Positions 30,301 to 54,677 of a stretch of 64,000 nt of DNA are shown piece after piece. Each line of letters opens with the position of its first letter. The stretch's first letter is position 1. The position numbers and the translations under genes are program-made. The notes beneath the pieces are model-generated. The model did not search any database. It saw only the letters and a program-made list of their open reading frames with translations, and was not told the origin of the DNA. Source of the DNA: Leucoraja erinacea (lineage: Eukaryota); the NCBI RefSeq assembly GCF_028641065.1, contig NC_073405.1:20460001-20524000 (forward strand). The letters run 5' to 3'.

Positions 30301-33300
30301 ACTGAAATAAGACTTACAGGTGTGAAACAGCTAGAATGAGCACTGCGGCTATGAGAATTGTTCTAGGAAAGAACTGTTGATGCTGGTTTAAATCGAAGGT
30401 AGACACAAAATGCTGGAGTAACTCAGCGGGACAGGCAGCATCTCTGGAGAGAAGGAATGGGTGACGTTTCGGGTCGAGACCCGTCTTCAGACTGATGTCA
30501 GGGGAGTGGGCGGGATAGAGATAGAATGTAGTTGGAGACAGTAAGACTGGTGGGAGAGTTGGGAAGGGGAGGGGATGGAGAGAGAGAGGGAAAGCAAAGG
30601 CTATTTGAAGTTAGAAAAGTCAATGTTCATACCGCTAGGGTGTAAGCTACCCAAGCGAAATGCGAGGTGAAGTTCCTCCAATTTGCGCTGGGCGTCACTC
30701 GGCCAATGGAGGCCCAGGACAGAAAGGTCAGATTGGGAATGAAAGGGGGAGTTAAAGTGCTGAGCAACCGGGAGATCAGATAGGTTAAGGCGGCCTAAGC
30801 GGAGGTGTTCAGCGAACGATCGCCGAGTCTGCGCTTGGTCTCACCGATGTACAGAAGTTAACACCTGGAACAGCGGATACAGTAGCTGAGGTTGGAGGAG
30901 GTGCAAGTGGACCTCCGCCTCACCTGAAGACTGTTGGGGTCCTTGGAAGGAGTTAAGGGGGGAGGTAAAGGGACAGGTGTTGCATCTCCTGAGGTTGCAG
31001 GGAAAAGTACCTGGGATGGGTTGTTTGGGTGGGGACGAGTTGACCGGGGAGTCGCAGAGGGAACGGTCTCTGCAGAAAATAGAAAGGGGTGGAGATGGGA
31101 AGATGTGGCCAATGGTGGGATCCCGTTGGAGATGGATAAAATGTTAGGAGGATTTTATGCTGTATGTGACGGCTGTTGCAACGGGAGGCGAGGACAAGAG
31201 GGACTCTGTCCTTGTTGCGAACGGGAGCGGGTGCAAGAGCGGAGCTGCAGAATATCGAGGAGACCCTAGTGAGAGCCTCATATATAATGGAAGAGGGAAA
31301 TTCCCGTTTCCTAAAGAATGAGGACATCTCTGATCATCTAGCAAGGAAAACCTCATCCTGGCGTAGACAGAAGAATTGGGAGTAGGAGGATAGTCTTTAC
31401 AGGAAGCTGGGTGGGAAGAAGTGTAGTCCAGATAGCTATGGTAGTCAGTAAGTCTGTAGTAGATGTTGGTCAATAGTTTGTCTATTGTTCTAACCTATTT
31501 AATCAGAGGATAGTTTGTCTTGGGCTGCACCCCTTAAGTAATAGGACAATTTTTTTTAAATCCAGTGGCATGGATTTAAAACAACTGGTGTAAAGATTGA
31601 GGAGATAGAATAACGTTTTCAGAGATAGGGTACTATACACCAATGTTTTCAAGTATGCATTTTGCATTTTAAAAATGTGCAAATGGGAAGGATACAGGTC
31701 AGGTTTGGAAAATAACAAGGATTGACAGTAATGGATGTGGGCCAAACAGCATCAAAGTGCTCAACCCTTATGGCAACCCTTCAATTTGTCCTTGTATCTG
31801 CCCTTCTGTGCAACTGACATTTCAATCTTTGAACACTCCCCCAGTTTCTCACTGGATGGGAGCACACCAATTTTTCAAGACACAGAAAATGCTGTACTAA
31901 CTCAGGTCAGGCAGCATCTCAGTGATAGACACATAATGCTGGAGAAAACCAGCATCCGCAGTTCCTTCTTACACACCAAATTCTGTGCAAATAAGCGTCT
32001 GCACAATTCGCCAATCCAAAAACAAATATATCAGCAGTTTCTAGAAATCCAAGATAAAAATCAGAAAATACAGAGACGACTGTTGAATTGAATCAGTTGC
32101 AAACAGTGGATTATAACTGGAAGACATTTGTCAATACACATGACTACAGGGCTCATAATCAAACTCATCCAAAAATGCACAAACAATTGTTTGGGATTCA
32201 CCACACATTACAATTACCAGTACAAGGGCAATTCGAATGCCTGTACTTTTCAAAAATAGCTCGTTTTCACAAGCAAATATTTTTAATTGAATATCCTATT
32301 GGATATTCTTTTTCAGGGACTTCATGGAAGTGCACTACACTAATGAGCCTGAAACTAGAGGAGCTGCCTGCCTCAGCGGTGTTCTACAGTAATTTGATAC
32401 AAAAATATTCAATATTAATGGGAAACTACTGAGAACTGCGTGACTACATATTCCGGGCCATTCTAGTCTCAAAGAGAAACTGGATCACAAGGCCGATTAT
32501 TCCAAGCAAAGAAACCCAAAACAATATCAAATCAATCAAGTATAAATGTGGCATTTTCAGAGGAAAGGATATTAACACGGGAAGAGCAGCAAGGCATTCC
32601 AATCCAGAAAGGAAAAAACAATCTGCATTCTTACCATCTGGAAATTTAATGGACAGATTATCAGGTTAATTTAAAGCCAAATAATGAGCAAAAAAAACAT
32701 ATCAAAAGGCAAGAGCTGCTTTGACTATTCACACAGGACGTAGGGACCCTGCAAGTACTGAATCTGATCTAATGTAATCTAAAGAATATCTTCAAACCAA
32801 CACTTGGCAGTCTTTAACTGAAAGTAAAAATGCAAGTACTCAGTCAGTACATGGAGAGGCCAATGGAGTTCATTTCTCAGAACTTTGCAATCTATCTTCA
32901 TGATTTCCCCAGGGGGAAGAAAAATGTAGGAAAAAATCCAAGGAAGTGCTATTACCCCAAAAATGGACTTCAGCTGCACTTGTCTATCCTGCTTTAGGTG
33001 ATAATTCCCCCCCCCCCCATTAATCAGAAAGGCTATGCAATCCGACATGAAGAGAACAAACTATGCAGCATTTGCAGAAATTGCTTCTTTTCTTTTAAGC
33101 TTGCCAATTTTAATGAAGTACAAGATTAGTTTGGTAGATTGAATATAATAGCTTGACAAAAAAAACTGATATGTACCATTGAACAAAGTGGTTAATCTAG
33201 CATCATCATCTGTCCAATAATAGTTATTGTTTGTAATTCAATATACACCAGGAATTAAATAATTTAGATGCTTGTGTAAATGAACGAGCCACAAAACACG

Positions 33301-34580
33301 ATGCAATGTGCATTTCTCAAAGCTTGCATGACTTCAGTACCTGAGGGCAAGCAAGAGATATGGCATAAACTACATTTATAGAGATATGCCTCAAAGCGAT
33401 CATGTGGGATCACAACTGTTGAGTGAAAAAAAACCTACCTTTGTACCAACTGTTATATCTTGGACAATGCTGTAGGAAATAAAAACAACAATCAGTCCAC
33501 AACACCTAGGTCAGTAAAAATACTGCAAATCAGTTTAAAATGATTGAACTTTGCATCCAATGCATCCATGTGCAACTTTATTTTTCTGACCATCAAGTAT
33601 CATGCAAAAAATGCTCTCCTTCCACCCAATCTCAAGAGTTTATATCAACTTTTTTAAATTATCCTTTACTCAACGTTTTATTCCAAAAAAATTGAAACAA
33701 AAACAAGAACCTGCACTTGGCTCAGAAAAAAATGTCCCCTACTGCCGGACACTTATTACATTTGATTGCAATTCTAGCCTGTCCCCCATGGGACAGTGGG
33801 GGTATTAAGGAGTTGTTTGTACTCAACTCCCCAATACAAGACATCGGAAAAAAAGTTTGCTGCACGCCCAACATGCCACTCAAACGTGAAGTGACTCCAT
33901 CTCTGGGAAAGAGTTATTTTAAAGACTAACTTTTATAACGATTCCTTTTGTTCAGATGGTACTGACAAAACTTCCAACAAAAAAAAAAAAGCAGGAGCGA
34001 GGGAGGGAGGGGGGGGGGGGATGGGATGGGGGGAGGGGGGGGGGAGGGAGGGGGGGGAGGAAAAGGGAAGGCGGGGAGCAACATTGGGCGGTGGGAAAAG
34101 GGGACAAGTTTAACAACGCTTGGCTACACGTTTGAACCGCAGCCACGCACAGTTCATGCCCGGCCCTCGCTGCCCATAGGTAAGGGCTCCCCGCCCCATT
34201 CAGCTCGGCAGGCGCCTCCCGAGCCGCGGGCTCCAGCTCCGCCGCCATTTTGCGCGGTGGGAATGGCGACTCGAAGGCTGCGGTCATCCCGCTCTTCTCC
34301 ACCGTTTCCCACACACTCTAGAGACGTGGAAGCGGCGAGCCGGAGGGGATGGGGGTCGAGGACCGAGGTGCCGCAACCCGGGCATCGTGTGTGCGTGTGC
34401 GTCTCACGGGGACGGCAGCGAACACGAAACTACCCCCCTCCCTCTCTCCCCCCCCGCACGAGTTTTTCTGTCGCTTTCCTTTCCTTTCCCTCCGGTGCGC
34501 CCAGTCCGGTGGCGGCCCTTGGAGCAGAGTAGAGTAGAGTAGAGTAGAGTGTAGCAGCGCAGCGCACCTTACCCGTCCAT
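9194..34580 (-). CDS. PTBP1: Polypyrimidine tract-binding protein 1, spliced CDS (15 exons, 553 aa)
   Basis: join(34573-34580,33439-33469,25068-25140,24768-24943,23352-23498,21749-21916,20933-21043,20256-20427,19103-19177,16309-16454,13017-13050,12523-12615,10319-10535,9443-9520,9194-9326) = 1662 nt, all GT-AG and phase-consistent. [19 protein letters not shown]...four RRMs...[24 protein letters not shown] and the poly-Ala linker favour PTBP1 over PTBP2/3. Confidence 0.95.
9443..9520 (-). CDS. PTBP1: PTBP1 exon 14
   Basis: [26 protein letters not shown]|GTGAGT. Confidence 0.93.
10319..10535 (-). CDS. PTBP1: PTBP1 exon 13
   Basis: [13 protein letters not shown]...[30 protein letters not shown]|GTAAGT. 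Confidence 0.94.
11575..12222 (-). mobile_element. CR1-like LINE 3' fragment in PTBP1 intron 12
   Basis: ORFs [10 protein letters not shown]...[10 protein letters not shown] and [13 protein letters not shown]; same family as 44453-47270. Confidence 0.92.
12523..12615 (-). CDS. PTBP1: PTBP1 exon 12
   Basis: [23 protein letters not shown]...QAQL|GTAAGT. Confidence 0.93.
13017..13050 (-). CDS. PTBP1: PTBP1 exon 11 (34-nt NMD-switch exon)
   Basis: TAAAG|AGAGTTACGCCCCAATGCCTCTTTATTCTTTTCG|GTATGT; [11 protein letters not shown]. Confidence 0.95.
13051..13380 (-). promoter_or_regulatory. AG-exclusion zone, distant branch point and CU-rich tract upstream of PTBP1 exon 11
   Basis: No minus-strand AG from 13380 to 13053; TACTGAC at 13356-13350 followed by a long pyrimidine tract. 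Confidence 0.85.
16309..16454 (-). CDS. PTBP1: PTBP1 exon 10
   Basis: [28 protein letters not shown]...[10 protein letters not shown]|GTTAGT. Confidence 0.93.
17432..18231. mobile_element. Candidate non-autonomous hAT-like DNA element
   Basis: 11-bp inverted ends CAGGCATGAGA...TCTCATGCCTG and internal degenerate direct repeats; no 8-bp TSD found. Confidence 0.4.
19103..19177 (-). CDS. PTBP1: PTBP1 exon 9 (RRM2-RRM3 linker, 75 nt)
   Basis: [25 protein letters not shown]; resembles mammalian alternative exon 9. Confidence 0.9.
20256..20427 (-). CDS. PTBP1: PTBP1 exon 8
   Basis: [45 protein letters not shown]...AAF G|GTAAGG. Confidence 0.93.
20933..21043 (-). CDS. PTBP1: PTBP1 exon 7
   Basis: [26 protein letters not shown]...HAKL|GTATGT. 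Confidence 0.93.
21749..21916 (-). CDS. PTBP1: PTBP1 exon 6
   Basis: [10 protein letters not shown]...[22 protein letters not shown]|GTGAGT. Confidence 0.93.
22030..22643 (+). mobile_element. Rex1/Babar-like non-LTR retrotransposon 3' fragment
   Basis: C-terminal signature [30 protein letters not shown]; tail CAATAAA...CTTGACTTGACT. Confidence 0.75.
23352..23498 (-). CDS. PTBP1: PTBP1 exon 5
   Basis: [18 protein letters not shown]...[15 protein letters not shown]|GTGAGT. Confidence 0.93.
23660..24535 (-). mobile_element. CR1-like LINE fragment (endonuclease/linker region)
   Basis: VVMGDFN and [11 protein letters not shown]...[16 protein letters not shown]. Confidence 0.85.
24768..24943 (-). 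CDS. PTBP1: PTBP1 exon 4 (start of RRM1)
   Basis: [12 protein letters not shown]...[11 protein letters not shown]...LMLKGKNQ|GTGTGT. Confidence 0.93.
25068..25140 (-). CDS. PTBP1: PTBP1 exon 3
   Basis: [24 protein letters not shown]; donor GTGAAT, with an alternative in-frame GTAAGT donor ending the exon at 25059. Confidence 0.88.
27043..27508 (-). mobile_element. CR1-like LINE 3' fragment (second subfamily)
   Basis: [13 protein letters not shown]...TRGHDFRI...[14 protein letters not shown]. Confidence 0.85.
28395..28630 (-). mobile_element. Penelope-like element GIY-YIG endonuclease fragment
   Basis: [36 protein letters not shown]...PIAQHFN. Confidence 0.8.
28780..28907 (+). mobile_element. 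CR1-like 3' end, inverted relative to 27043-27161
   Basis: Reverse complement of the 27043 element tail. Confidence 0.75.
30365..31482 (-). mobile_element. Penelope-like element 3' part (RT C-terminus, GIY-YIG, terminal repeat with hammerhead motif)
   Basis: [21 protein letters not shown]; [15 protein letters not shown]; [17 protein letters not shown]; frameshifted. Confidence 0.85.
30460..30493 (-). ncRNA. Minimal type I hammerhead ribozyme motif (Penelope-associated)
   Basis: AGT CTGAAGA C GGGTC TC GACCC GAAAC GTC ACC. Confidence 0.65.
33439..33469 (-). CDS. PTBP1: PTBP1 exon 2 (31 nt)
   Basis: TTTCCTACAG|CATTGTCCAAGAT...ACAAAG|GTAGGT; [10 protein letters not shown]. Confidence 0.93.
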
Positions 34581-34860
34581 TGCAGAGCAGAGAACGCAGG
34601 AAGAAAAACCGCGGCTTCCACCAGCCGACCTCCCAACATATACCCCCAGAAAATGGCGCCGCGTCAATCACGGGCGCCGCCGCCTCCCATAGGCCGCCGG
34701 GCCGCAGGGGCGGGACTCTACCCGCCGGCCGCCGCTCCCATTGGTCGAGGCCAACGGTCGACGTGGAGCATCACGGCCCGCGGGCACCCAGCCGCCGCGC
34801 TTCCGATCTATGAGCTTTGCTTCCGGTGGCGGCAGCGCTGACATCAGCGGCCCCTTCCTT
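34100..34860 (-). promoter_or_regulatory. PTBP1 CpG-island promoter
   Basis: High CpG density; YY1-type CGCCATTTT at 34658-34650 and ~34243-34251; GC box GGGGCGGGAC 34707-34716; CCAAT 34744-34740. Confidence 0.8.
34573..34580 (-). CDS. PTBP1: PTBP1 exon 1 coding part
   Basis: GCA ATG GAC GG|GTAAGG inside a CpG island. Confidence 0.9.
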
Positions 34861-34925: not shown

Positions 34926-34960
<35 letters not shown>

Positions 34961-37724: not shown

Positions 37725-40700
37725 CTGGGAGAAACAAACACACGATTTGAAGACACGCACACTATTGAAGCTTCATACTGTGATAACAAGTATATTTTCA
37801 CCTGAGAAAAGGTTTGACATTCTAATGTCTGGTCCCAGAAATGAAGATATTCCAATTAAATCCTAATTATGATTGGTGAGATTCCTATCAAACTCTATCC
37901 TTCTATTAATAAAACACATAATTTCTCATACTGCCTTTAAAAATGTATAGAGAAATTTTCCCAGAACATTCTTTTCCAAAATCCCCATTGTATTACTTAC
38001 TGCTGCCTAATCTCTTTTGACTAACTAAAGTGCATAATCCTCACACTTCAATAATCATAACTGTTACCTTTCGAATGGAAAACCCAAGTACAGGTTATCA
38101 ATTCCAGTAGGCGGAGAAGGGACGTGGTGGGCACGATGCCGTAAAGGAGAATGAGCACAAAGAGCCCGTGGGGGGTGTACGGAAACAACATGGTGGGCAT
38201 CACACTGTTCAGGACATAACAGGCTGAGCGCAAGGACTCGGGGGCAGAGAAGATGCTTTACAACACGTGCTTTCTCACCTGATAACTCCATCCATGGAAG
38301 CTGTACAAAGAATGTTATCAGTGATCGGCACGACACAGTCAATGGATTCTCTCTGCACTTGGAATCGATCACTGGTTGCCCCAAACCCATTCCAGTTGAA
38401 GATGTAGATCATTCCCTCTGATGAACTGCAGGCCACCTTGCCGCCTCCCTGTTCACAAACAGAAGAAGGTTAATTAGCACCGCACTCTGCCTGGGTTCCA
38501 GTCTCATTAACCAGCCTCTGACTCATTGAGGGGAAGATGCTGCACTCAGTCAGCTCATCCTGTAACCGCTGAGCAAGTGAATAAACTAAAGGGGCATGTT
38601 AAAGAAAATTGCAAGTTCGGCCCTGTGGACCCTGAAATACAGAGGGGTGTTCCAGACTGCGGGAAATGGGCATGATGGGAAGGTGCAACAAGGCCAGGGA
38701 ACGTACAATAAATGGGAGGACTCCAGTGTTATCCTTGGAGTCAATGTTCAAGGATTCTTAAGGATAGTGGTAGTTACAAGAGATTAAGGGATGCTTTCCT
38801 TATTCGTTGGTGCACAAGATCAGGGGAATTATGTTAGAACAGCGTACAACATTAGTTTAGCTGTAGTTTATGCCTTGCATACATTTCTGGCTGTCATGTC
38901 ACAGGTATTATGTAAGGGCGGCACATTGGCGCAACAGAAGAGCTGCTTCCTTCCAGTGCCAGAGACACAGGTTCAATCCTGACTATGGGTGCTGTCTGTA
39001 TGGAGTTTGTACATTCTCCCTATGAAAGGGTGCATTTTTTCCCCAGTGCTTCAGTTTCCTCCCACACTCCAAAGATGTACAAATTAGTAGGTTCATTGAC
39101 TTTGGTAAAATTGTCCCAAGTGCGTAGGATAGTGTTAAGTGTATGGGGCAATCGATGGTCAGCGCGGACTCTGTGGATTGAATGACCTTTTTCTGTGCTT
39201 TTAAAGTTTATTTAGTGGTTACGAAGTTTTACCTCACCTACATATTCTTGTAAGAATTTACTCTGTGGTTAAGAATCATGGCCATTGGTTTCACAATGTT
39301 TAATCCAAATACATTTCAATTCTGCAAGAGTTCACCTTCATTATAGCCAGTGATGTAAGGTCACCATCCTGAAACTCTGATTGCAGGTCAAAGCGGCGTC
39401 TCTTAATGTTGAAAACACACATCGTACCATCACCACTAGAGAGACAACAGGACAATGTGAGAAGCCATTATGCAGAAGGAGGGAGAGACAAATTAATAGA
39501 GAACACAAGGTGCAGAAGAGATCAGATGGACAACCAATACATGCTAGTGGCATGCCAGCTGCTGTCTCACAGTTCCAGTGGCCTGGGCTCGATCCCGACC
39601 TTGTGCCTTCTCTGTCTGGAGTTTCAGTGACTTATGCACAAGTTGTAGGATCATGGATTCACAGCATGGGAATAGGCCCTTCAGCATTAAATCAGTACTG
39701 ACAGTTAATGCCCATTTACACTAAACTCACTTCATTCTCCTCATAGCAAAAGCAGCCAACCAACCCACGTGTCTTTGAGATGTTGGAGAAAACTGGAACA
39801 CCTTGAGGAAGCCTACGTGGTCACAAAAAGAATGCAGGCAACAAACATAGCCTCATGAATCCCAGCTGCATCTGGCTTTGTTGGTTACATGAAACTGTCT
39901 TTGTTCAATCCGACTCTGGCGCCACTCCCCAAATCGTTGTCCACCACATCAACAACGACGCTAATGCTGCCGTGGTGCATCTTGTCAACTTCAACACTTT
40001 CGCCATCATGGCCATCCAGCCCTCAAATTCATCTGGTCTATTTCTGACACTTCTCTTCCCTTTCTAGATCAGGAGATAAACGTATCCACCAATATCTACT
40101 ATTAACCTATAGACTACCACAACCACTACTCCTCCTCCCACCCCATTTCCCATAAGAATGCCATCCCTTTCTCTCAGTTTCTCTGTCTCCACCGCATCTG
40201 TTTCCAGCTAAGGTATTCTGCTCTACAACTTGCAAAAGATCATCCTCCTCTGGAAATGTGGCTCATCCTGTGCCATGGCTGATGGAACCCTCACATAGAG
40301 AGGCCAACCTCCATCTCCAGCACATCTACTCTCACCTTTCTTCCCACAAACACAGAGTTTCCCGCTCCACACCTTTTACTCCAATGGCCTTAGTATCCAG
40401 CGCATCATCCTTCACCGCTTTTTTCAGTTCCAACATGATCCCATTGCCAGTTATATCATCCCCTCTCCACTTTCTGCAAGGACCATACCCTACGACCCTT
40501 GGTTCAATCCTTCCTCACCCACCCCTCCCCATACCCTGCTACTGTTGGTGCAATACATGTTCTTGAACCATCTTCCAGGGACCTAAACTCCCTTCCAGGT
40601 GAGGCATTCATTTGTACCTCCTCCAACCTGATCTACTGCATTTGGTGCTCTCAAACCAGCAAGACCAAGCACAGAATAGGTGATCACTTTGCAGAGCACC

Positions 40701-43700
40701 TTATTTGCAAAAGGGCCTTACCACAATGTAACATCATGTCTATGGAGTATGCATGAATTAATCAAATTTTTACCTAAGAGGCAAAACTACTATTCACTGA
40801 GTCAACCTTTAAGGTGAACCCATCCAGTTAGCCGAGTTGTTTCTGTACCTGGTTGTAAGCAAGATCTTCTTATTCTGGTCAATTGTGATATCACTAATAT
40901 AATCATCATGGTTTTTCATCTCCATGAAAGAGGTTTCCTTCCGCAAATCCCAAACTTTCAACAAACCATCATCGTCTCCCGTAGCAAAAAGATTTTCATC
41001 AATCAGCTTCAAGCTATTAATAGCAACACTGGTGGAAATAAAAACAAGAGACCCAGGGTTAAAGTGAAGCAAATGGGAGGGTGGCTGAGCGAGAAAGGTT
41101 AGTGGATCGATGGGAGGAGTTGGAATCCCATTAAGTTATGTGATAGGTGATACACGATCCTGTGGCTGAATATTTTTTTTGTTTAAGTCAACAACATGGC
41201 AGAAGCCGGAGAATGGGAGGTGGGTGAGGGTGTCAGGTGAAGAATGGGAAAAGAAAGGGGTGGCGAGGCAGCAGGGCATGACCCAGGAGAGGGGGGAGGC
41301 ATTGGCAGGGAGATGTCCGATGTGGTGGGAGGGGTGGTGTGGGGGGGGAGAAACATATGTACTCAAGAGAGGTAAACTGGAGAATATATTCCCAGATGGG
41401 AAGGCAGAACAACATTGGACAATGTACAAAAAGTGATAATGAACTTAGAAATGTTTTGCATTAAAATATAATCAAGTAAACAAATGAAAGGCTGTGGATA
41501 AATTGAGATGAGGATCATATTTAATCTGATGAAATAGATATAGCCAGAGAAGATTAACAATTAATTTACAGTACTATGTTACAAGTAGGAGAATAGCATT
41601 GTAGTTGGAGAATCGAGTTGGGGATGGGAATGGGGGAGAAAATGGGATAATGTACATTATCTGCCCAAAACGTTGCCCGTTTCCTTTGCTCCATAGATGC
41701 TGCTGCACCCGCTGAGTTTTTCCAGCATTTTTGTGTACCTTCGATTTACCAGCATCTGCAGTTCGTTCTTAAACACCTTAACAAGGCAATTTGGTGCACA
41801 AGTGTAAGGATTTCTGCAGATGGTAGCACAGGTAGATAGGGAGGTGAGGAAGGCACTCCTATCAATATGGCATAGAACGCAACGTGCAGGAGATAATGGC
41901 GCAATATAACATTGGTTCACCGCAGTTAGAATACAGTGTACTATCTGATAGCAATGCTACGGGAAGAATGCAATTCACTGGAAAGTGTGCACAGCAGATT
42001 CACCAGATGAAGCATTTCAGTTATATGGATAGATTGGAGAGGCTGGGTTTGCATTCCTTGGAGTAGAGCAGGGCAAGGAGGAATCTGATAGAGGGGTTCA
42101 AAATTGTTAGGGACACTGATAAACTAAATAATAGGAAACTATTCCCCATGTCAGAGGCATCCAAAATTAGAGGGAAAAGTTTTGTTAGGGGATAATAAGG
42201 TGTAGTTCAGATCTAAGGAAGATTTCTTTCCACCAGGGATGGTTGGAATCTGGAACACACTGCCTGAATAAATGATGGAGGTAGGTACTCGCAAACCATT
42301 TAATTATGCAAGGGAGCACTTGAATTGCCAAGGCAAAAGAAAACTATGGACCAGGTGTTGGTGAATGGGGAGTGTGTGGGGAATGAGATGATGGACCGAA
42401 AGGCCCATTGTTGTTCCTGTGACGCAATGAGTACTTTGGGAACACAGGTTGAAACTCTGTTCGGGGTAATTTAACCTGGTTTCCTCCAGGTGCTCTGGTT
42501 TCATCCCACATCCTAAAGGTGTACGGGTTTGTTGGTTAATTGGCCTCTGTAAATTGACCTGCGCTGTTTAGGTGGGAAAGTTGGAAAATATAGAACTAGT
42601 GTGAACGAGTTATCAATGGTTGCCATGCATTTGGTGGCTGAAGGCCCCGTTTCCATGCATTAAACATTCCTTGGAACACTACAATTTACCGTTTATGTCC
42701 TGCCTCATTTGACTTTCCAAAATGGATCATCCTCTCCCTTTGCACTCCACATTTACAGGTCCATTCTGTTACTCTTGGATGACCATCTATAAATCATACT
42801 TTGCATTTCACCTATCACCGTTCCTTTCAACCCTCACACTCTGCGGGTCGACCTCCCCTTCGCATGGCCTCAGTCCCAACTCTGCCCTGGGATCACCCAA
42901 CTACGCCCATTGCTCTCTGCCGCTCATTCGGTTTGGGGGGGGGGGGGGGAAGAGCCAGAGTCAGTACCTGTGAGCTTTGGGAATCCTCCTCGTCAACTTG
43001 CCTCTTTCAACATTGAGAATGTGAACCGATTTATCTTTTGAAACTGTAAAGAGTCCTGCAAAGAAGAAAACACCATGTGAGTTCTGAGTCATGATCGCAC
43101 TGAAATCATGTGCGGTTATCTCCCTGCAGGTGCTGGCTGACCAGCTAAGCAATTCCAGCATCTGATCCTCTTATAACACACATGCTATAAAATCCAACCG
43201 CCGACAGAGTCATTATATAAGAGCAAATTTTTAATCCCACTACCTCACCTTAGAATGCATGTGATCTAATTGTCAAGAATAGCCTACCATGCAGGACCTC
43301 GTCAAATGTCTTGCTAAAGACCACATAAACAATATCCACAGCACTGCCCTCATCAATCTTCTTGGTGGCCTCATCAAGAATCTTCAGATCTGTGGGTATT
43401 CCATGCATACTATCCTGAATCAGTCCATGCCTATCCATATGATGGTAGATCCTGTATCTTAGCACGCAGTTCAGTGACTAACCTTCTATACATTAGGCAA
43501 ATCATATTATGTATAAGAGTGTCAGAGAGGAGACCACACTGAGTCAGTACAAAAAGGTCACCATGTTTTAGGTAATCTTCAAGTACCCTTCAAGTCTGAT
43601 ATGTTGTTGTCACCAAAGAGGATCTACCACTATCCACTGTAATCATTTCACTTTTTTAATCACGTATTAATATATTCATGGTATGATTTGACTGGGCACC

Positions 43701-46700
43701 ATTCAAAGCAAAGCATTTATAATCTAAACTAGAACTCAACCACCTTTGGCAATTTGTATACTGCAGTAAGACATCACAACTCCTATGTTTAAATTTGTTA
43801 GCTTTCTTGATCTTCTCCTCAGTAAAATAAATGGATGAAAAATATTAATTTAATCACTCCCCCTCCCATCTCTCCCCTTCCTGCAAATATTGATAATAAA
43901 TTGAGGCACTACCTTCCCCATTGTCGGTGAATGCCACTTTCCGGCAGGATTTCAAGTGATGCCCCGAGGACCACAGCTCCTGGTTTCCAGACTCCTCACA
44001 CGAATAGGAGAAACTGCAACACAATTCAAGGCAGACGGTCACTATTTTCCTGCTAATGTTTTCCTTTGTTTCCCTTGATACTCTGCTTGGTGTTGTACCC
44101 TCATCCTTCTCTGCTCCCACCTCAGAAGGGTGCTGTAACCATTGATTAAATGCCTCAATACAGCAGAGAATCATATATATCTGTATAATTCAACTGTTCA
44201 ACACTAATACTAAAAAGCATAAGATCAAACAGAACCATGTTTCTTCCTTGCCTAAAACACAGTGAAAGTGATGTTGATTAAAAGGGAAGAAACCATGGAG
44301 GCACCTGATGTTTTTTGGCGTCTGACTCCAAGTCTTAAGGATATAATTAATGTAAAGTAATGGCTGGAAGATGATGGGTGACAATGCAATTAGCGGGAAT
44401 AAATTTGGGTGTGACTGGAGAGTTAATGATATCAATGAAAGGAACAGTATTTAGAAACATAGAAAATAGGTGCAGGAGTAGGCCATTCGGCCCTTCGAGC
44501 CTGCACCGCCATTCAAAATGATCATGGCTGATCATCCAACTCAGTATCCTGTACCTGCCTTCTCTCCATACCCCCTGATCCCTTTAGCCACAACTAACTC
44601 CCTCTTAAATATAGCCAACAAACTGGCCTCAACTACCTTCTGCGGCAGAGAATTCCAGAGATTCACCACTCTCTGTGTGAAAAAAGTTTTCCTCATCTCG
44701 GTCCTAAAAGATTTCCCCCTTATCCTTAAACTATGACCCCTTGTTCTGGACTTCCCCAACATCGGGAACAATCTTCCTGCATCTAGCCTGTCCAACCCCT
44801 TAAGAATTGTGTAAGTTTCTATAAGATCCCCCCTCAATCTTCTAAATTCTAGCGAGTACAAACCGAGTCTGTCCAGTCTTTCTTCATATGAAAGTCCTGA
44901 CATCCCAGGAATCATTTTGGTGAACCTTCTCTGTACTCCATCTATGGCAAGAATGTCTTTCCTCAGATTAGGAGACCAAAACTGTACGCAATACTCCAGG
45001 TGTGGTCTCACCAAGACCCTGTACAACTGCAGTAGAACCTCCCTGCTCCTATACTCAAATCCTTTTGCTATGAATGCTAACATACCATTCGCCTTCTTCA
45101 CTGCCTGCAGCACCTGCATGCCTACTTTCAATGACTGTTGTACCATGACACCCAGGTCTCGTTGCATCTCCCCCTTTCCTAATCGACCACCATTCAGATA
45201 ATAATCTACTTTCCTGTTTTTGCCACCAAAGTGGATAACCTCACATTTATCCACATTATACTGCATCTGCCATGCATTTGCCCACTCACCCAGCCTATCC
45301 AAGTCACCTTGCAGCCTCCTAGCATCCTCTTCACAGCTAACACTGCCCCCCAGCTTCGTGTCATCCGCAAACTTGGAGATGTTGCATTCAATTCCCTCGT
45401 CCAAATCATTAATATATATCGTAAATAGCTGGGGTTCCAGAACTGAGCCTTGCGGTACCCCACTAGTCACTGCCTGCCATTATGAAAAGGACCTATTTAC
45501 TCCTACTCTTTGCTTCCTGTCTGCCAACCAGTTCTCTATCCACATCAATACTGAACCCCCAATACCGTGTGCTTTAAGTTTCTATACTAATCTCTTATGT
45601 GGGACCTTGTCGAAAGCCTTCTGAAAGTCCAGATATAACACATCCACTGGTTCTCCCTTATCCACTCTACTAGTTACATCCTCGAAAAATTCTATAAGAT
45701 TCGTCAGACATGATTTACCCTTCATAAATCCATGCTGACTTTGTCCAATGATTTCACCACTTTCCAAATGTGCTGCTATCCCATCTTTAATAACTGATTC
45801 TAGCAGTTTCCCCACTACCAACGTTAGACTAACTGGTCTGTAATTCCCCGTTTTCTCTCTCCCTCCCTTTTTAAAAAGTGGTGTTACATTAACTACCCTC
45901 CAATCCTCAGGAACTACTCCAGAATCTAAAGAGTTTTGAAAAATTATCACTAATGCATCCACTATTTCTGGGGCTACTTCCTTAAGTACTCTGGGATGCA
46001 GCCTATCTGGCCCTGGGGATTTATCGGCCTTTAATCCATTCAATTTACCTAACACCACTTCCCAGCTAACCTGGATTTCACTCAGTTCCTCCATCTCATT
46101 TGACCCCCGGTCCCCTGCTATTTCCGGCAGATTTTTTTTATGTTTTCCTTAGTGAAGACAGAACCAAAGTAGTTATTCAATTTGTCTGCCATGTCCTTCT
46201 TCCCCATGATCAATTCACCTGTTTCTGACTGCAAGAGACCTACATTTGTTTTAACTAATCTTTTTCTCTTCACATATCTATAAAAGCTTTTGCAGTCAGT
46301 TTTTATGTTCCCTGCCAGTTTTCTTTCATAATCTATTTTCCCTTTCCTAATTAAGCCTTTTGTCCTCCTCTGCTGGTCTCTGAATTTCTCCCAGTCCTCT
46401 GGTAGGCTGCTTTTTCTGGCTAATTTGTATGCTTCATCTTTTGTTTTGATACTATCCCTGATTTCCCTTGTTATCCACGGATGCACGACCTTCCCTGATT
46501 AATTTTTTTGCCAAACTGGGATGAACAATTGTTGTAGTTCATCCATGCAGTCTTTAAATGCCTTCCATTGCATATCCACCGTCAACCCATTAAGAATCAA
46601 TCGCCAGTCTATCTTGGCCAATTCACGTCTCATACCCTCAAAGTTACCTTTCTTTAAGTTCAGGACCCTCGTTTCTGAATTAACGATGTCACTCTCCATC

Positions 46701-48876
46701 CTAATGAAGAACTCAACCATATTATGGTCACTCTTGCCCAAGGGGCCACGCACAACAAGACTGCTAACTAACTAACCCGTCCTCATTACTCAATACCCAG
46801 TCTAGAATAGCCTGCTCTCTCGTTGGTTCCTCTACATGTTGGTTTAGAAAACTATCCCGCATACATTCCAAGAAATCCTCTTCCTCAGCACCCTTGCCAA
46901 TTTGATTCACCCAATCTATATGTAGATTGAAGTCACCCATTATAACTGTTTTACCTTTGTTGCACGCATTTCTAATTTCCTGTTTGATGCCATCCCCAAC
47001 TCCACTACTACTGTTAGGTGGCCTGTACACAACTCCCACTAACGTTTTCTGCCCCTTAGTGTTTTGCAGCTCTACCCATATCGATTCCACATCCTCAAAG
47101 CTAATGTCCTTCCTTTCTATTGCGTTAATCTGCTCTCTAACCAGCAACGCTACCCCACCTCCTTTCCCTTTCTGTCTATCCCTCCTGAATATTGAATATC
47201 CCTGGATTTTCAGCTCCCAGCCTTGGTCACCCTGGAGCCATGTCTCCGTGATCCCAACTATATCATAGTCAATATTTGCTGGAAGTTGAAGCATTAACAG
47301 GAGATTAGGGTTTAGGGAATAAATAAAATGACACAATTACATTGTGCAGTTTTGAAGCTCAAATGGCGTCAAAGAGTTCCACAGGCAATTTAAACATTTT
47401 CTAGTTTTGAAGAGAGGTCTCTGACATTACATTAATTGTGCCCAACTGTTGAAGTGACCAAGAAAGCACTTTAACGATGTTAGACGTGGCCATTATCAAT
47501 TTTTCAAAACAGCATCCTATCCACCAAGTAAAAAATATTGAATCAATTCTGAACAAGAGAGGCAATACAATTACAGACACCGGAAACTTAGCAGAGATGT
47601 GACCTATTAATGTACCCTTGCATTTAATAGGTGTATCTTCTAATCCATTAAACAGCACGCCATGGAATTGCACACCTTACCCCTCCATATCTCTATGTTT
47701 CCGTCTCTCCTGTTTCTCAGTCTGAAGATGGGTCTCTACCCGAAACCTAAACCATTCCTTCTCTCCAGAGATGCTGCCTGTCCCGCTGATTCACACCAGC
47801 ATTTGTGTCTATCTGCAGTTCCTACTAGTCATTATGCTTTGATTATGAGCTGCAAGGCAATCTGCAGAAGGCTGATGTCCACCAGTATAATGTAGTCCAA
47901 AGGCTTACACTCTTTTTCCTGACCTAAATACTTAAGAGCATTGTTTTGGTTACCATAATATATCTCTACAGAGAAATACATACACATATATATCTCCATC
48001 AACATCTCCTGCTGCGATAATATCTCGTGCTGGGTGGAAAGCAATCGTATTTACAATGGCACTGAAGGTGATATCTTCTGGGGTTTCTCGTATACGGGGC
48101 TCTTTTGTTTCCTCAATTTCAGAATCATCCTGTTGAAATGAATATTTAAATATGAGGATAGTTTCTGCAGGATACATTGCTCCAAATCCAGATAGCCTGC
48201 AACAATCCCGAAAGCACAAGACAAGGAGTCTGAAAAAAGTCTCGACTCAAAACGCCACATATTCCTTTTCTCCGGAGATGCTACCTGGCCCGCTAAATTA
48301 CTCCAGCATATTGTGTCGATCTTCAGTGTAAACCAGCATTGCAGTTCCCTCCAACACAAGACAACTACCAAATCGGGAGGAGAGCCTCTTCACACAGCCG
48401 AAGAACGGTGGGAGCGGGAAGGAGAGGACTGGGTAGGGGTAGGGGGAGGGGGGGGTTGAAGAGATAGACACAAAATGCTGGAGTAACTCAGCGGGACAGG
48501 CAGCATCTCTAAATAGAAGGAATGGGTGACGTTTCGGGCCTAAACCCTTCTTCAGACCTGGCCGGGGGCGAGGGGAAGCAGTGGATTTGCCGAGCGGGGA
48601 AGGAGAGGATTGACCGGGAGTAGGGGGGAGAGGGGAAGGGGGAGAGGATCGGATCGGATGGGACAGTTCAGGCGAGGGGAGATAGCAGCCGAGACGCCGG
48701 AGATGGATCATGGAGCAAGGGGCGTTGGGATAGGTGCAGGCGGCAGGCAGGCAGTCCGTTCTCCCCTTTCCCACAATAACCCAGCTCTCCGCGTTCATTT
48801 TCCCTTCCCGCTCGAACCCGATCCCAGGACGGGCTCCACGACCACGACCACGACCGCTCACCGTGGGCAGCGCCAT
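37400..48876 (-). CDS. WDR55: WD repeat-containing protein 55, spliced CDS (8 exons, 374 aa)
   Basis: join(48862-48876,47984-48129,43913-44013,42968-43055,40849-41028,39336-39435,38279-38448,37400-37724) = 1125 nt, phase-consistent. [39 protein letters not shown] and FFADL match recalled WDR55. Confidence 0.92.
38279..38448 (-). CDS. WDR55: WDR55 exon 7
   Basis: [29 protein letters not shown]...TASMDGVI. Confidence 0.9.
38916..39200 (+). mobile_element. V-SINE-like element
   Basis: GGGCGGCAC head, GGTTCAATCC B box, TATGGAGTTTGTACATTCTCCC core. Confidence 0.7.
39336..39435 (-). CDS. WDR55: WDR55 exon 6
   Basis: [33 protein letters not shown]. Confidence 0.9.
40060..40702 (+). mobile_element. 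Degenerate Penelope-like fragment
   Basis: [15 protein letters not shown]...[14 protein letters not shown]. Confidence 0.75.
40849..41028 (-). CDS. WDR55: WDR55 exon 5
   Basis: [29 protein letters not shown]...LLTT. Confidence 0.9.
41790..42420 (+). mobile_element. Old CR1-like 3' fragment
   Basis: PQLEYSV and [16 protein letters not shown]. Confidence 0.65.
42968..43055 (-). CDS. WDR55: WDR55 exon 4
   Basis: [28 protein letters not shown]. Confidence 0.9.
43913..44013 (-). CDS. WDR55: WDR55 exon 3
   Basis: [33 protein letters not shown]. Confidence 0.9.
44453..47270 (-). mobile_element. Long 5'-truncated CR1-like LINE (APE endonuclease + RT, disrupted) in WDR55 intron 2
   Basis: [61 protein letters not shown] across consecutive ORFs. 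Confidence 0.95.
47984..48129 (-). CDS. WDR55: WDR55 exon 2
   Basis: [20 protein letters not shown]...GDVDGDIY. Confidence 0.9.
48525..48558 (-). ncRNA. Minimal type I hammerhead ribozyme motif in WDR55 intron 1
   Basis: GGT CTGAAGA A GGGTT TA GGCCC GAAAC GTC ACC; 3-bp stem I GGT/ACC. Confidence 0.62.
48862..48876 (-). CDS. WDR55: WDR55 exon 1 coding part (MALPT)
   Basis: CCAAC ATG GCG CTG CCC ACG|GTGAGC; good Kozak context; phase 0 fits the next exon. Confidence 0.78.
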
Positions 48877-48905: not shown

Positions 48906-51061
48906 TTGAAGTTCATTAGCAACACGGGGGGGGCAGAGTGGGATGGGTCTGGGGTTAAGAGGTCAGTGATGAGGGCAGTTGTTGTCTCAGGGGCAGAGGG
49001 AGTGGATCAGTGATGGAGGCAGGGGGGTGGCCCATGGGGTCAATGATGAAGGCAGTGCCTAGGGGAGGGGTGGGGAGATGTAGGGGTGCGAAGAGGGTCA
49101 GGGTAGAGGGCAGAGGCAGAGGAGGGTCAATGATGAGGGCACTGCCAGAAGGAGGAGATGGTTCAGTGGCGTAGGGGAAAAGGAGGGGGCCAGTGATGGG
49201 GAAAAGGAGGGGTGGGAAGGCAGACAGTGTAATGACAGGGAAGTGCAGGGGTGCGGAGGAGACAAGGGTAATGATGGGGTAGTGTTTAGGGCAGAAGGGT
49301 GAGTGGAGTCAATGATGAGGGCAGTGATGGGGGCGGTTCAGGGGCAAAGGAGAGGTCAGTGATGAGAGCAAAGGACTTGGCAGTGAATCGGGGGAATAGC
49401 AGGGGTGAGAAGGGGGTGTCAGCAACAGGTTCTGAGGTTTTCCTGTGGAGTCAGTTGCAGGGAAATGCAGGTGGGAGCAGGGATGAAGGAGTAGGGGTCC
49501 AGTTATGAAGAAGGAGGGACTGTGATAAGGGAGCACAAAACAATCTGCTGGAGAAATTCAAGGGGTCTGACAGCACCTGTGGAGGGAAATGGACAGACAA
49601 TTTTCCAAATCGAGACCCTTCATCTGGACCAAAAGAGTAGAGGGATGATGGGTAGCATAAAGAAGAGGGGTGGGGAAAGTGTTTACATAGATTGAGTGGG
49701 TTCAGAGAGGAGTGGTGGACCAGTGGATGGATTCAGGTTGGGGGAGAGAAGAGAGGAGATAACTGAGGCTGGAACATGATTAGTGGAGGGGCAACAGATG
49801 ATGAGATCTGTTGGAAAGGAAGGTGGAATATGGGACCAAATAAAATAGGTAGGATGGCAGATTGGGGTGGAAAAAGGGAGTCGGAGGAGTGTGTGGGTGC
49901 TGGGCAAATGAAGTGGGTGGGGAAGAAACTGGATGAGAGTGGGGCAGACACCTCAAGGCATTGAAAAGATACCACCAACATTTCCTCAAAATCCTCCACA
50001 TCCACTGGCAGAATAATTGAATCAATGCCAGTGTCCCTCCAGTGCTGCCGTGCCCGACACTGACACCCTAATTACCCTCAGGCAGATCTGAGCTTTGGCT
50101 TGTGAAGATCTTACCAGGAGACAGAGAGAAAAATTCAAGGATATGTGTAAACTTTCCTTGCACAAATGCAATAGAGTTAATGGGCATGTTAGAGAATGGC
50201 TTCCAGAGAAAATTTAAGTGAGGGAATGGGACTGGTGGGATAAAACTGAGAGATGGCATAGACTTGATGGACTGAATGATCTATGTTGTAAAGCAATTTG
50301 AAAAATTCCCACTGACTCTTCGAAAACTGACCCTTCAATGGTCAAAGTGGTGCAGGATTTGCACTGGGATTGAGTCCAGGTACACAGAAGCTGAAGGTGG
50401 TGGAAAGAGCGCACTACCCAAACTACCCTCAGGTTGTCCACTCAGCCACTTTCCGCCCATCTGTGGAAGAATCTGGGAGTCCCACCGTCACCTCCGAACC
50501 CACAGATCCAGAATAGAAGCCAGTCATTGTCTATCTCAATGGCTTATCTAGAAAGAATAGAATGTTTCATGTATTATTGTCACATGTACCGAGGCACAGT
50601 AAAAAACTTATTCTGCATGTTCCTAGTCATGTCATACTATACACAAGTACAATAGGTCTTCTTCTGGAACAGCATGCAGAGAGTCGCTGTGTTCTGGCAC
50701 CATCTTGCAACCTCCAAGACTCTGAAAAGTTCGATCGTCCTAAGAAGGTATGCAATTTCTTATATTCTCACTTTAAGGTCCTGTATCCTCGGGGACTGGA
50801 TCAATGAACTGAAGAGTCAGCCTAGCCTAGCAGATGCCATCAACTCTGTCCACTTTCCTCCACAGATGCTGCCCTGACCTGTTGAGTTCTTCCAGCACTT
50901 TGTGATTTTCCCAAGACTCCAGCAGCTGCAATTTCTTATCTCTATCATCTGGTGTCTCCCCGAACTCCCAGCACTGCTGACAATGGTTCCAGAATTTTGT
51001 TGAGTCAAGTAACAGAGACCAAGGGGACTGAGGAAGTCTTAAAGCAAACTGGTGAAAGTGG

Positions 51062-51370
51062 CTACAAACGGCTCAGTGGCACAGCTGGTACAGCTGCTGC
51101 CTTACAGCACCAGAGACCCGGGTTCGATCCTGATCTCGGGTGCGGTCTGGGTGGAGCTTGCACGTTCTCCCTGTGACTGCGTGGGTTTCCACTGGATGCT
51201 CCAGTTTCTTTCCTGATCCAAAGGATTTGCGGGTCTGTAGGTTGGTTAGCATTTGTAAATTGCCCCTAGTGTGTAGTGGGATAACTAGTGTGAACAGGTA
51301 ATAAATGCTTGGCGAGGGATCAGTGGGCTGAAGGGTCTGTTTCCATGCTGTATCTCTATAACTACACTAA
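51062..51370 (+). mobile_element. V-SINE-like element
   Basis: AGTGGCACAGCTGG A box, GGTTCGATCC B box, GTGGAGCTTGCACGTTCTCCCTGTG core. Confidence 0.75.
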
Positions 51371-51859
51371 AACGATTGACCCATTGATGAGCTTTGATCT
51401 GGTTTGGGAAGCAACAAATAATTTGACTCGTTTTGGCTGTTTTTTTTCTCCACTGTAGTTGCACCTTTGCATATCCTCTCTCAATTGCACCGAGATCTCC
51501 CCTTAAGTGAGGAGTATGAGCCAGGCTTGAGGGAGTAACTGAAAATACAATCCGACCCTCATTTAACGAGAATTTGTTAAGATTCGGGTAAGGGGCGGGG
51601 GGGGGGGGGGGGGGGTCAATCCAAGTGTCACCTGAGCCAACTGTTTGGATAAAACCACTGCCCCCTTTCACCTAAAAATATCTTCCCATCAGATTTACTG
51701 ACATGTCTGCAAGGATTGGAATTTCTCCTGCCCTTTGGCCTGCCACTTGACACATTAGTAAAATAATCAGGGTGGAGTCCTAAACCTGTTAATGTATGAC
51801 AGGAATAGGTTTAATGGTCGGTCTGAACCAAATCTCTGTCATATCTTTAGTACTTTAGG

Positions 51860-52162
51860 GATTTAATGTGGACACAGGCCCTTTGGCCCACCGAGTCCGC
51901 GCTAACCAGCAATCACCTCTTAACGCTGACACTATCCTACTATCCTACTATCCTAGGGATAATTTACAATTTACAGACGCTAATCAATCTACAAGCCTGT
52001 ACATCTTTGGAGTGTGGGAGGAAACTGGAGCACCTGGAGAAATTCCACATGGTCACGGAGAATGTACAAACTCCGTACAGATGGTACCCAAGGTCAGGAT
52101 GGATCCCGGGTATCTGGCCCTGTAAGGCAGCAACTCTACCGCTGTGTCACTGTGCCGCCCCT
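51860..52162 (-). mobile_element. V-SINE-like element (inverted relative to 51062)
   Basis: Minus-strand GGGGCGGCACAGTG head and GGAGTTTGTACATTCTCCGTG core. Confidence 0.72.
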
Positions 52163-53509
52163 GTACTGGTACTGAGGTCATCACTTCTGGTCAGATTAAG
52201 AGAGTACAAAGCAAAAATGGCCCTCCGTAAGTAAGGGGAAATGAAATTGTGTAGTTTGGATAGTGTCTTAGCAAGCTTTTAGACTGATGGAGCTGCCAGC
52301 CCCTCTCCCACTTCCCTGAGGATTAGCTGTTTAAATATTAATAAGGTCTGAGAGGGATCTGTGCTTCAGAGATTGTACTCTGACCTCCCCTGTAATCAGA
52401 GTTCACTGTCGACATTGCAGAGTAGAGGGTGAAGTCCAGGTGGCCTTGACAAATGGTTGTTGCCACTGAATCCCTGAAGGACTTTGACCTTTGAACGGAG
52501 TCAACCGAACATTTGCAATCAGGCATTTGTTCGGGGACAGACACAGCCCAGAGTGAAGGGAGTACTCCAGTCATCCAGTCATCCAGTCCAGAAGTTGAAT
52601 TCTATGAAATAGAATGGAGATTGTGGATGATTTGCAGTTTCCTCTGTGCACTTATGGCTGTGAAGTTGTGAAAGTAGTTAAAGCAGAGAGAGCACAGAGT
52701 GCTGGAGTAACTTGGTGGGACTGGCAGCATCCCTGGAGAAGATGGACAGGTTACATTTCAGGCCGGGATTCTTCCTCAGACTGGTCATTTTATTCTGCGG
52801 TTGGTATTTATCCTCTTGCATACCAGGAGTGAGTTGGGTAAGTGCTTCTTTGGCTGAATTTATTGGAGGTAATGAATCTGTACTCTGCCTTTAACAGGCT
52901 GCTAATTTTATGTTTATGTTTTCGAGAACCCTTGTGAGCCTTGTGTAGGAAATAAATAGTTCACACCTAGTTTACATTGCTTCTTAATCAACTGTATTTT
53001 TAAACCTTTCCATGACCTTGCTGTGGATCTCGGCAGTTCACAATCCTCTTCCATACAATCTCCATTGCAATTACATCTTTGCAACGATGTGGTGAGAAAA
53101 ACTACACACAGTACCCACTAAATGTTGGAGTAACACAGCAGGACAGGCAGCATATCTGGAGAGAAGGAATGGGTGACATATCAGACTCCTGAAGAAGGGT
53201 CTAGACCCAAAACATCATGCATTCCTTCTATTTGGAGATGCTGCCTGTCCCGCTGAGTTACTCCGGCATTTTATGTCTATCTTCGGTGTAAACCAGCATC
53301 TGCAGTTCCTTCCACCAGAATTGTACAGTATTTTTCCATTGCTTGCTCTTATTTGCTTATATTGCTCATTTTAACATGTCGTTATCAATAACACATGGGG
53401 AGGGAGTGGAGTGGAAAGGAAGTGCAGGAAAAGAAAGTGTTTGCTATTACATTTTAGTCACCAGGCACTGTCACAAAACACTGAATATCTGCAAGTCTGA
53501 TGTTACTTT

Positions 53510-54005
53510 GAATCCCTTCATCCAAATCATTGATGAATATTGTAAATAGCTGCAGTCCCAGCACCGAGCCTTGTGGTACCCCACTAGTCACTGCCTGCCA
53601 TTCTGAAAGGGACCCATTAATCCGTACTCTTTGTTTCTGCCAACCAATTTTCTATCCATGTCAGCACTCTATCCTCAATACCATGTGCCCTCACTTTGCC
53701 CACTAATCTCCTATGTGGGACCTTATCAAATGCTTTCTGAAAGTCCAGCCAGGTACACAACATCCACTGACTCTCCCTTGTCCATTTTCCTAGTTACATC
53801 CCCAAAAAATTCCAGAAGATTAGTCAAGCATGATTTCCCCTTCGTAATTCCATGCTATCTCGGACCAATCCTGTTACTGCTATCCAAATGTGTGGCTATT
53901 TCATCTTTTATAATTGACTCCAGCATCTGCCCCACCACCAATGTCAGGCTAACTGGTCTATAATTCAGTTTTCTCTCCCGCCTTTCTTAAAAAGTGAGAT
54001 AACAT
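53510..54005 (-). mobile_element. CR1-like RT fragment
   Basis: Similar to 45400-45890 (GVPQGSVL region). Confidence 0.8.
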
Positions 54006-54394
54006 TGTTTATGGCAGTTTCACTTTTGTGCCCAAAAGGTTAGATGTAGGGATGACCTTGTGAACTTGATTAAGCGCATAATGTTAAAATACTGTACAAT
54101 TGTTTGCAATGAATAATAATGAAAATTGCATTTTCCTTGCTCATCCTTTACATTTCCTTCCTGATGAACTGCACCAAATTGAAACTTCCAACTCAACTGA
54201 TCTTTGTGACACTTTGATGATGAGCTGTCCAGAGTCCCGGAGCCACACACAGTGCCCCCAACCTATCATACGGTCCCCAATGCCAGATCACACCCGACCC
54301 AAACTACCCCTGGTCCCTGAACCCACGCCCAGCTCAACCCTGATCCTACGTCCGGTTTCTGGTGCCCCACACTAGACCCAAACTCCCACACTAC

Positions 54395-54677
54395 ACTTGG
54401 ACAGTTTACAACCCAGCTATACGAATATTGATTTCTCCAACTTCACATAACCCTTGCTTTCCCTCTCTCTCCGTCCAACTCTGGTCCCCGACTAGTTACA
54501 CTGTCCTGCTGATTAATTTCACTGTTTGTAAACACTGAACCATTCTCGTTGTCAACGTCTGCTTTGATCTGTCTGTTCACACCTTATACTTCCGTATCTC
54601 TAATTTCCCTCTCCTCTGACTCTCAGTCTGAAGAAGGCTCTCGACCGGAAACATCACTCCAGCATTTATGTCTATCC
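54395..54677 (+). mobile_element. Penelope-like 3' end with degenerate hammerhead motif
   Basis: ORF-end remnant (NIDFSNF) then CTGAAGAAGGCTCTCGACCGGAAAC. Confidence 0.65.

Follow-up and report, generated by a model that had tools for sequence, protein, structure and literature searches.

Background

Metazoan Penelope-like elements (PLEs) carry minimal hammerhead ribozyme motifs just past the GIY-YIG ORF (Cervera and De la Pena 2014, PMC4209133). That solo minimal hammerheads occur at thousands per genome is already published, with about 4,000 copies in the coelacanth and about 9,000 in Xenopus (PMC4209133). The activity reported for minimal Penelope hammerheads is low: monomeric minimal motifs did not cleave (PMC4209133), and one of nine Xenopus dimers was reported to do so. 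In the Poseidon element PAc of Anolis, reverse transcription starts at two internal sites that mark an optional 30-40 bp tail, product length tracks the template's 5' end, and uncut RNA is the main substrate; PAc ribozyme mutants insert normally, and cleavage by the PAc ribozyme requires protein (Frangieh et al. 2024, PMC11167929). As for the 5' ends of such transcripts, Penelope elements offer precedents both for initiation, in the form of a LINE-like promoter located internally (PMC2377424) and of a TCACT that resembles an Inr in the pLTR of a rotifer (PMC3846280), and for splicing, in the form of an intron whose end lies at helix I (PMC4209133).

Scattered over the window analyzed here, by which we mean the whole 64-kb stretch of DNA, are about 20 copies of a single module of 95-130 nt in which a minimal type I hammerhead motif is joined to a tail. 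We give about even credence to the reading that these repeats constitute the terminal module of a Penelope-like retrotransposon family with an endonuclease, represented mostly by dead copies, and that the solo copies were made by the enzyme of the autonomous element.

Results and discussion

The module family

Using a profile seeded with seven module copies, we recovered 20 matches at E<0.01 (7 of them the seeds) and 29 rows at E<=10; against the reversed window the same profile gave 4 rows with a best E of 0.75. Fragments of the module thus occur at about one per 3 kb. An earlier note, made from the sequence alone, had claimed a dispersed, high-copy hammerhead motif, and both the recurrence and the high copy number are borne out by this search. 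All 11 positions that it listed were matched, though 59162 is weak (E 0.21) and devoid of the tail and 54628 has lost most of its tail; the list was correct as far as it went, and about nine further fragments were found. The core pattern CTGANGA..GAAACGTC has two matches, at 30490-30463(-) and 48555-48528(-), the very loci that had been named as intact, with 0.00 expected from 100 shuffles. This amounts to 2 intact cores per 64 kb (Poisson 95% interval 0.24-7.2). Among the window copies at least three types of upstream sequence and three variants next to the ribozyme can be distinguished, and module fragments outnumber ORF remnants in the window only about 5:1 (21 vs 4). Apart from the ORF-linked module treated below, the copies are:

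48462-48557, minus strand: solo module with the second intact core (48555-48528) and a short 3' end, on the sense strand of WDR55 intron 1
48215-48364 including the flanking duplication, plus strand: solo module 48227-48353, core broken, long 3' end
47671-47823, plus strand: module with a broken core and about 50 nt of UTR of a second type
53110-53188 (minus) and 53189-53314 (plus): head-to-head inverted module pair joined at the ribozyme 5' edge, both cores broken
52690-52783, minus strand: solo module with a broken stem II, older and from another subfamily
54396-54677, plus strand: ORF C-terminus (54396-54450), second UTR type and module with an internal deletion
49537-49630, minus strand: most diverged module (29/88 mismatches), of another subfamily, with C-G replacing U-A as the first stem I pair
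5410-5485, minus strand: decayed solo module (profile search, alignment)
18417-18477, plus strand: tail-only copy starting about at the predicted cleavage site
20649-20765, plus strand: module truncated within the core
28077-28312, unstranded: composite, inverted fragment made up of a UTR inverted repeat and pieces of tail
31880-31971, unstranded: composite of inverted tail extension and tail pieces
41664-41769, plus strand: module of the GUU triplet subfamily with a long 3' end, truncated in stem II
43119-43163, plus strand: tail fragment (profile search)
50858-50934, plus strand: decayed tail (profile search)
59159-59181, plus strand: weak 5' half of the core without tail (profile search, E 0.21)
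61443-61491, plus strand: tail-only copy (profile search)

Linkage to a Penelope ORF

The 30490 module lies downstream of a decayed Penelope ORF, and its parts, together with two further ORF remnants besides the 54396-54450 C-terminus listed above, are as follows:

30601-31494 (remnant 30604-31494), minus strand: 5'-truncated, decayed ORF end with RT thumb, CX4CX2C linker and GIY-YIG; stop at 30603-30601
30491-30600, minus strand: pyrimidine-rich 3' UTR (73% pyrimidine at -45..-5) ending in TCAGT directly before the core
30461-30492, minus strand: minimal type I hammerhead motif in intact form, with cleavage predicted to fall between 30463 and 30462
30400-30460, minus strand: shared tail with a conserved AUGCUG/CAGCAU helix; short-class 3' ends at about 30400
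30364-30399, minus strand: optional tail extension of about 35 nt; long-class 3' ends at about 30364
28408-28662, minus strand: second GIY-YIG remnant of the same element family
39965-40753, plus strand: third, more decayed Penelope ORF remnant (protein-vs-DNA match), with no recognizable module

The ORF remnants match proteins that combine RT and GIY-YIG domains (tblastn E 6e-27 to 4e-35), which supports the Penelope origin that the earlier note had proposed. The 30604-31494 remnant can be aligned to residues 519-812 of an RVT_1+GIY-YIG protein 816 aa long (E 6e-27), the RT core being absent through truncation. Ten homologues were looked up, and the eight that could be named are all from the whale shark or a stingray. 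Pfam recognized GIY-YIG in none of the five Penelope-derived frames of the window, so that the assignment of this domain rests on the homologues. The earlier claim that the ORF stop lies about 110 nt from the 30460 copy holds (stop 30603-30601, core C3 at 30490), placing the hammerhead core 110 nt past the stop, in the terminal repeat; the ORF itself is broken by several stops and frameshifts. Three-frame translation of the remnant located a CX4CX2C linker, and a CX2-5CxxC linker is present in 141 of 151 homologues. By the definition given in PMC8557442, such a linker suggests the Neptune/Nematis type, an assignment by sequence motif. The features of EN+ Penelope-like elements found on testing are the C-terminal GIY-YIG, the hammerhead past the stop, the optional tail of about 35 nt and inverted copies of the element end, here joined head to head; one 10-bp target duplication is a further Penelope trait of the window. 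Neither a full-length copy nor a pLTR-ORF-pLTR tandem is present within the window. The ORF-linked 30490 module differs from the majority sequence at 2 of 94 positions.

Anatomy of the hammerhead motif

Among nine copies that span the whole motif (15 aligned copies in all), two have an intact core, and these two display CUGANGA, GAAA, NUH, G10.1-C11.1, an extra base 5' of helix II and the helix III palindrome. The motif matches the minimal Penelope hammerhead consensus in PMC4209133 Fig. S3. The layout proposed earlier, a minimal type I motif with palindromic ACGT in place of helix III, stands; its 2-nt stem II loop does not, because such a loop is sterically impossible, and the stem in the intact 30490 motif is therefore 4 bp closed by a 4-nt loop. 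Helix I has 2 bp in the 30490 copy and 3 bp in the 48555 copy, the latter having also a different helix II loop and a U.G pair. G12, which lies within a CpG, is altered in 4 of 11 copies. An Rfam scan gave no hammerhead match in the window at E<=1 nor in 30350-30560 at E<=10. The active dimer fold lies 12-20 kcal/mol above the best fold (2D energy, tertiary terms not included), which agrees with the low activity of minimal motifs as reported in PMC4209133 and with the single cleaving dimer out of nine from Xenopus. Folding z-scores for six single-stranded stretches ranged from -1.2 to +0.6 and gave no signal.

The ribozyme and tail are open in one frame throughout 30490-30364(-) and 53189-53314(+), for which the chance is about 1 in 3; the ORF start of PAc is likewise open through its ribozyme. 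Translations of the modules matched 151 homologous proteins at noise level (best E 0.005, with a 3-sequence target), and a coding role for the module is thus unsupported. Searches of viral, prokaryote-genome and metagenome contigs with the tail patterns returned no loci. The core pattern was found in two IMG/VR contigs (L001 501-529(-) and L002 501-528(+), as CUGAYGA-GGG..CCC-GAAACGUC); these have no Penelope tail and a poor helix I, were rejected as members of the family, and represent either chance matches or unrelated minimal hammerheads.

Conservation and decay

The earlier note had named core nucleotides no more conserved than their flanks, together with absence of cleavage at GUC, as what would refute its reading. 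In the eight copies that span both regions, mismatches number 9/95 in the core and 63/465 in the tail (p=0.32), or 6/87 and 61/450 without CpG (p=0.11), the column ranges being set by eye. Covariation in the ribozyme stems, likewise proposed as a check, did not emerge from 15 decayed rows: two pairs have a two-sided change vs 1.6 in shuffles, and 272 of 500 shuffles score as high. The 6-bp tail helix has 6/92 mismatches vs 55/343 in the rest of the tail (p=0.018), with 49 of 50 cells paired, a figure that is biased because the copies were found through this stretch; none of its five pairs has a compensatory change. The module copies show neutral decay after insertion, so that the lack of a significant core excess and of covariation is expected and does not refute ribozyme activity in the source elements. 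Selection on the ribozyme, if any, acts on those elements and is invisible in the window copies.

The tail and the 3' ends

Two classes of 3' end lie about 36 nt apart, and the tail extension that separates them is found in four copies and two inverted fragments. Flanks at both classes are AT-rich with low agreement to a consensus. One of 16 copies tested has a clear target duplication, namely 10 bp at 48215-48224 and 48355-48364 around 48227-48353 (null P 0.0023 per test, 16 tests). A 7-nt motif occurs at 30416-30410 and again at 30386-30380(-), 30 nt apart and one before each 3'-end class; a single upstream hexamer is able to pair with either of the two. To judge from these motifs, the optional tail may have arisen long ago by duplication of the RT recognition helix.

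The 5' edge

Five of 13 mappable 5' ends fall at -4..0 of the core, about 30 nt ahead of the predicted cleavage site, and one of the 13 falls at that site itself. The clustering has p 0.014 (scan-corrected, uniform null) for ends placed partly by eye, with the 53184/53189 pair merged, 49626 dropped as belonging to another subfamily, and eight fragments omitted, among them 30490 and 54628 (outside the range) and four short fragments; p is 0.0001 if 49626 is included and 53184 and 53189 are counted separately. A pyrimidine tract is present before the edge in all five UTR-bearing copies (71-83%) and missing in three of the four short copies tested (32-46%). In copies 48230, 52779 and 5483 a non-pyrimidine unique flank lies directly at the edge, and the target duplication of the 48230 copy lies 2 nt from its 5' edge. 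The flank of the 48555 copy is 73% pyrimidine and could be an unknown UTR. We take the TCAGT at the edge to resemble an initiator and, in combination with the 71-83% pyrimidine tract, also a 3' splice acceptor; the sequence fits the latter as well as the former.

Reads from related organisms

Four sequencing runs from relatives were searched at an 85% likeness threshold, the window genome itself not being among them. In all four runs the ribozyme was covered 22-37 times as deeply as the adjoining upstream bin and 7-25 times as deeply as the ORF end, contig depth in these runs not being equivalent to copy number. In the polyA run (X23), 20,964 of 7,335,232 records matched, and 96% of these run on into unlike sequence, so that for the most part the module rides along in transcripts of the host; its two strands are balanced there (7,447 vs 7,426). 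Over the Penelope ORF and UTR in the same run (30535-31477), minus-strand first mates exceed plus-strand ones about 1.3- to 5-fold; under the usual library convention this excess would be antisense RNA.

Loose ends, where reads depart from the module, lie at 30364, 30395-30407, 30450, 30464, 30475 and 30495 among the 24 listed of 3,271. Those of the short class (30395-30407) recur in all four runs, and the long-class end at 30364 has 785 reads in X23. The loose ends at 30450 and 30495 carry the consensus of other subfamilies. The top class at the 5' edge, that at 30495 (777 reads, agreement 0.5), is the UTR of another subfamily and not unique flank, and part of the depth step is therefore due to subfamily divergence. 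Six of the 15 joints listed, of 762 in all, have a side at 30490-30495, and these include an inversion and head-to-tail units of 94, 95 and 126 nt; no joint at the cleavage site 30463|30462 is among the 15 of 762 listed. Read ends do not pile up at any place, a weak test of cleavage in a polyA library. Tandem joints are rare, with 7-10 contigs among 372,839 placed in X19, and 19 RNA reads have a related go-back joint.

Host genes and neighboring sequences

The WDR55 gene occupies the minus strand, with its coding start at about 48876 and exons down to 37403; its best matches are from sawfish (80%) and stingray (79%), ahead of sharks, so that the DNA probably comes from a ray or skate. A second minus-strand gene starts at 34580, has no Pfam match and is, going by its peptide, presumably of the PTBP family. 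The first WDR55 intron (48127-48861, about 740 nt) holds two tail-to-tail modules 139 nt apart that are 77% complementary over 84 nt, and going by this complementarity they could form double-stranded RNA in the pre-mRNA. A LINE remnant with AP endonuclease and RT domains (44541-47336(-), Pfam Exo_endo_phos and RVT_1), which we take to be CR1-like, has a related fragment at 11836-12234(-). A decayed U2 snRNA-like sequence at 60503-60629(-) (Rfam 30 bits with gathering 46, E 0.036) is probably a pseudogene. Minisatellites are found at 54773-55758 (19 nt x53), directly following the 54628 module, at 63057-63403 (48 nt x7.4) and at 63792-63982 (48-49 nt x3.9).

Origin of the solo copies

The rule that PAc products extend to the 5' end of their template, the clustering of 5' ends and the presence of TCAGT, for which Penelope elements offer precedents, lead us to interpret the solo copies as made by the autonomous element through run-off on uncut RNA, a reading by analogy whose chances we consider roughly balanced. 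By analogy with PAc, the RT would prime inside the tail, the two 3' ends being internal start sites used in an AT-rich nick. The clustering of 5' ends suggests that the transcript of a tandem element would start, or be spliced, at TCAGT. The RT would then run off at the RNA 5' end just ahead of the uncut ribozyme, and where it failed to jump on into the body a fixed unit of 95 or 130 nt would be inserted, sometimes folded back to yield an inversion. The ribozyme of the source element is envisaged as cleaving only slowly, as a dimer or with help from protein, with lone copies inert. The near-majority sequence of the ORF-linked module, the 3'-end classes, the 5'-end cluster, the pyrimidine-poor flanks of short copies, the 48230 duplication, the depth step and the listed joints with a side at the edge speak for run-off; the share of subfamily divergence in the depth step, the pyrimidine-rich flank of 48555, the equal fit of TCAGT to a splice acceptor, the restriction of the reads to relatives, the small number of ends (13), the single clear duplication in 16, the 5:1 ratio and the head-to-tail units weigh against it. 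Solo copies are likely by-products of copying of the full element rather than a separate family. In its most specific form, to which we lend somewhat less than even credence, the proposal would be that the product that Penelope elements of rays and skates most commonly insert is a fixed "strong-stop"-like unit of 95/130 nt, reaching from the internal RT starts to the transcript 5' end at the uncut hammerhead.

It is conceivable instead that many Penelope subfamilies were truncated at random from the 5' side and that the sharp edge is a homology edge, with only the terminal module conserved. The several upstream types and ribozyme-proximal variants of the window and the subfamily consensus in the loose ends at 30495 and 30450 agree with this, as does the fact that 5' truncation is normal for PLEs (PMC8557442, PMC8969392) and that solo motifs are called probably truncated PLEs in PMC4209133. 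However, random truncation fits poorly with the unique non-pyrimidine flanks at the edge of copies 48230, 52779 and 5483, with the target duplication at the edge of 48230 and with the 53110-53314 inversion joined there, and we regard it as unlikely. The earlier note favored a non-autonomous family, which in retrozyme- or SINE-like form would possess source copies of its own (with units of 95-130 nt in tandem, cleavage of dimers, and circles) and use the Penelope RT in trans. Such a family would account for the excess depth of the module over the ORF end in all four runs, and the head-to-tail joints of 94-126 nt units also fit retrozyme-like spread, with the go-back joint in 19 RNA reads pointing the same way; moreover, a 4-nt variant is common to solo copies 48555 and 53189 and missing from the ORF-linked 30490, and pLTR-derived retrozymes are reported in one chondrichthyan (Li et al. 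2026, bioRxiv 10.64898/2026.07.22.740005). Yet ORF-linked and solo modules are nearly identical, and no tandem array was found, the motif appearing in none of the 20 tandem-repeat (TRF) rows of the window; there are no tRNA genes in the window and hence no tRNA head, the module beginning with the hammerhead core.

Nor would a circular template favor 5' ends at the ribozyme edge, and the rarity of tandem joints, the lack of a read-end pile-up or listed joint at the cleavage site (weak as that polyA test is) and the energetic cost of the active dimer in 2D folds likewise count against own source copies, so that we hold this alternative to be decidedly improbable. Finally, both intact cores lie in introns of minus-strand host genes and are sense to them, which raises the idea that the host has retained them as intronic ribozymes directed at the WDR55 and PTBP-family pre-mRNAs. 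A sense orientation in both of two cases has a 1-in-4 chance, and the intact copies are among the least diverged (30490 with 2/94 and 48555 with 6/94 mismatches), so that youth explains their intact state; as monomers they have no helix III and a helix I of only 2-3 bp, and monomeric minimal motifs did not cleave in PMC4209133. We therefore consider host retention highly implausible.

Implications

At a minimum, one more vertebrate lineage is added to those with the published Penelope hammerhead motif, here present at high density. What deserves following is the solo module with its fixed edge: should the shared 5' edge prove real, these genomes would contain a huge natural collection of RT start and stop points, and genome sequence alone could tell whether the template was cut or uncut. 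If the reading of the solo copies as fixed run-off units is true, they would constitute a genome-scale in vivo record of internal priming, with the ribozyme carried uncut through transposition; this would account for the solo minimal hammerheads that animal genomes contain by the thousands, and the units would be the raw material for the origin of retrozymes.

Comparison with known systems

In the open literature searched (Repbase, Dfam and subscription papers lying outside it), neither a module family of this kind in cartilaginous fish nor a run-off model is described, Li et al. 2026 aside, and the available parts of PMC4209133 Table S1 and Fig. S3 list no cartilaginous fish. Non-LTR retrozymes (PMC7229834; Li et al. 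2026) are, like the solo modules, non-coding, related to pLTRs, equipped with a type I hammerhead and dispersed as monomers; they are defined by tandem units with complete ribozymes and by abundant circles, whereas the window has no tandem units and the relatives have rare tandem joints. EN+ Neptune/Nematis PLEs (Craig et al. 2021, PMC8557442) share with the present family the C-terminal GIY-YIG, the CX2-5CxxC linker, 5' truncation, inverted ends and a 30-40 bp tail; unlike them, the window has no full-length copy or pLTR-ORF-pLTR tandem, and the likeness to this clade comes from the linker and not from an RT tree. PAc differs in belonging to the Poseidon clade and in having its ATG within the ribozyme, where the majority sequence here has none, and a fixed-length solo module with a shared 5' edge is not part of the PAc account as available to us (PMC11167929). 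It agrees with the present family in its two classes of element end with a minimal hammerhead some 60-100 nt upstream, in its AT-rich flanks and in the lack of RNA-seq ends at the cleavage site. The closest likeness in the ribozyme itself is to the hammerheads of PMC4209133, with which the motif shares CUGANGA-H, the G..C helix II, GAAA, the palindromic CG, GUC, a short helix I, the position past the ORF and an abundance of solo copies; within that set its 4-bp helix II accompanies a helix I at the short extreme (2-3 bp), like the Drosophila, Culex and Oikopleura rows.
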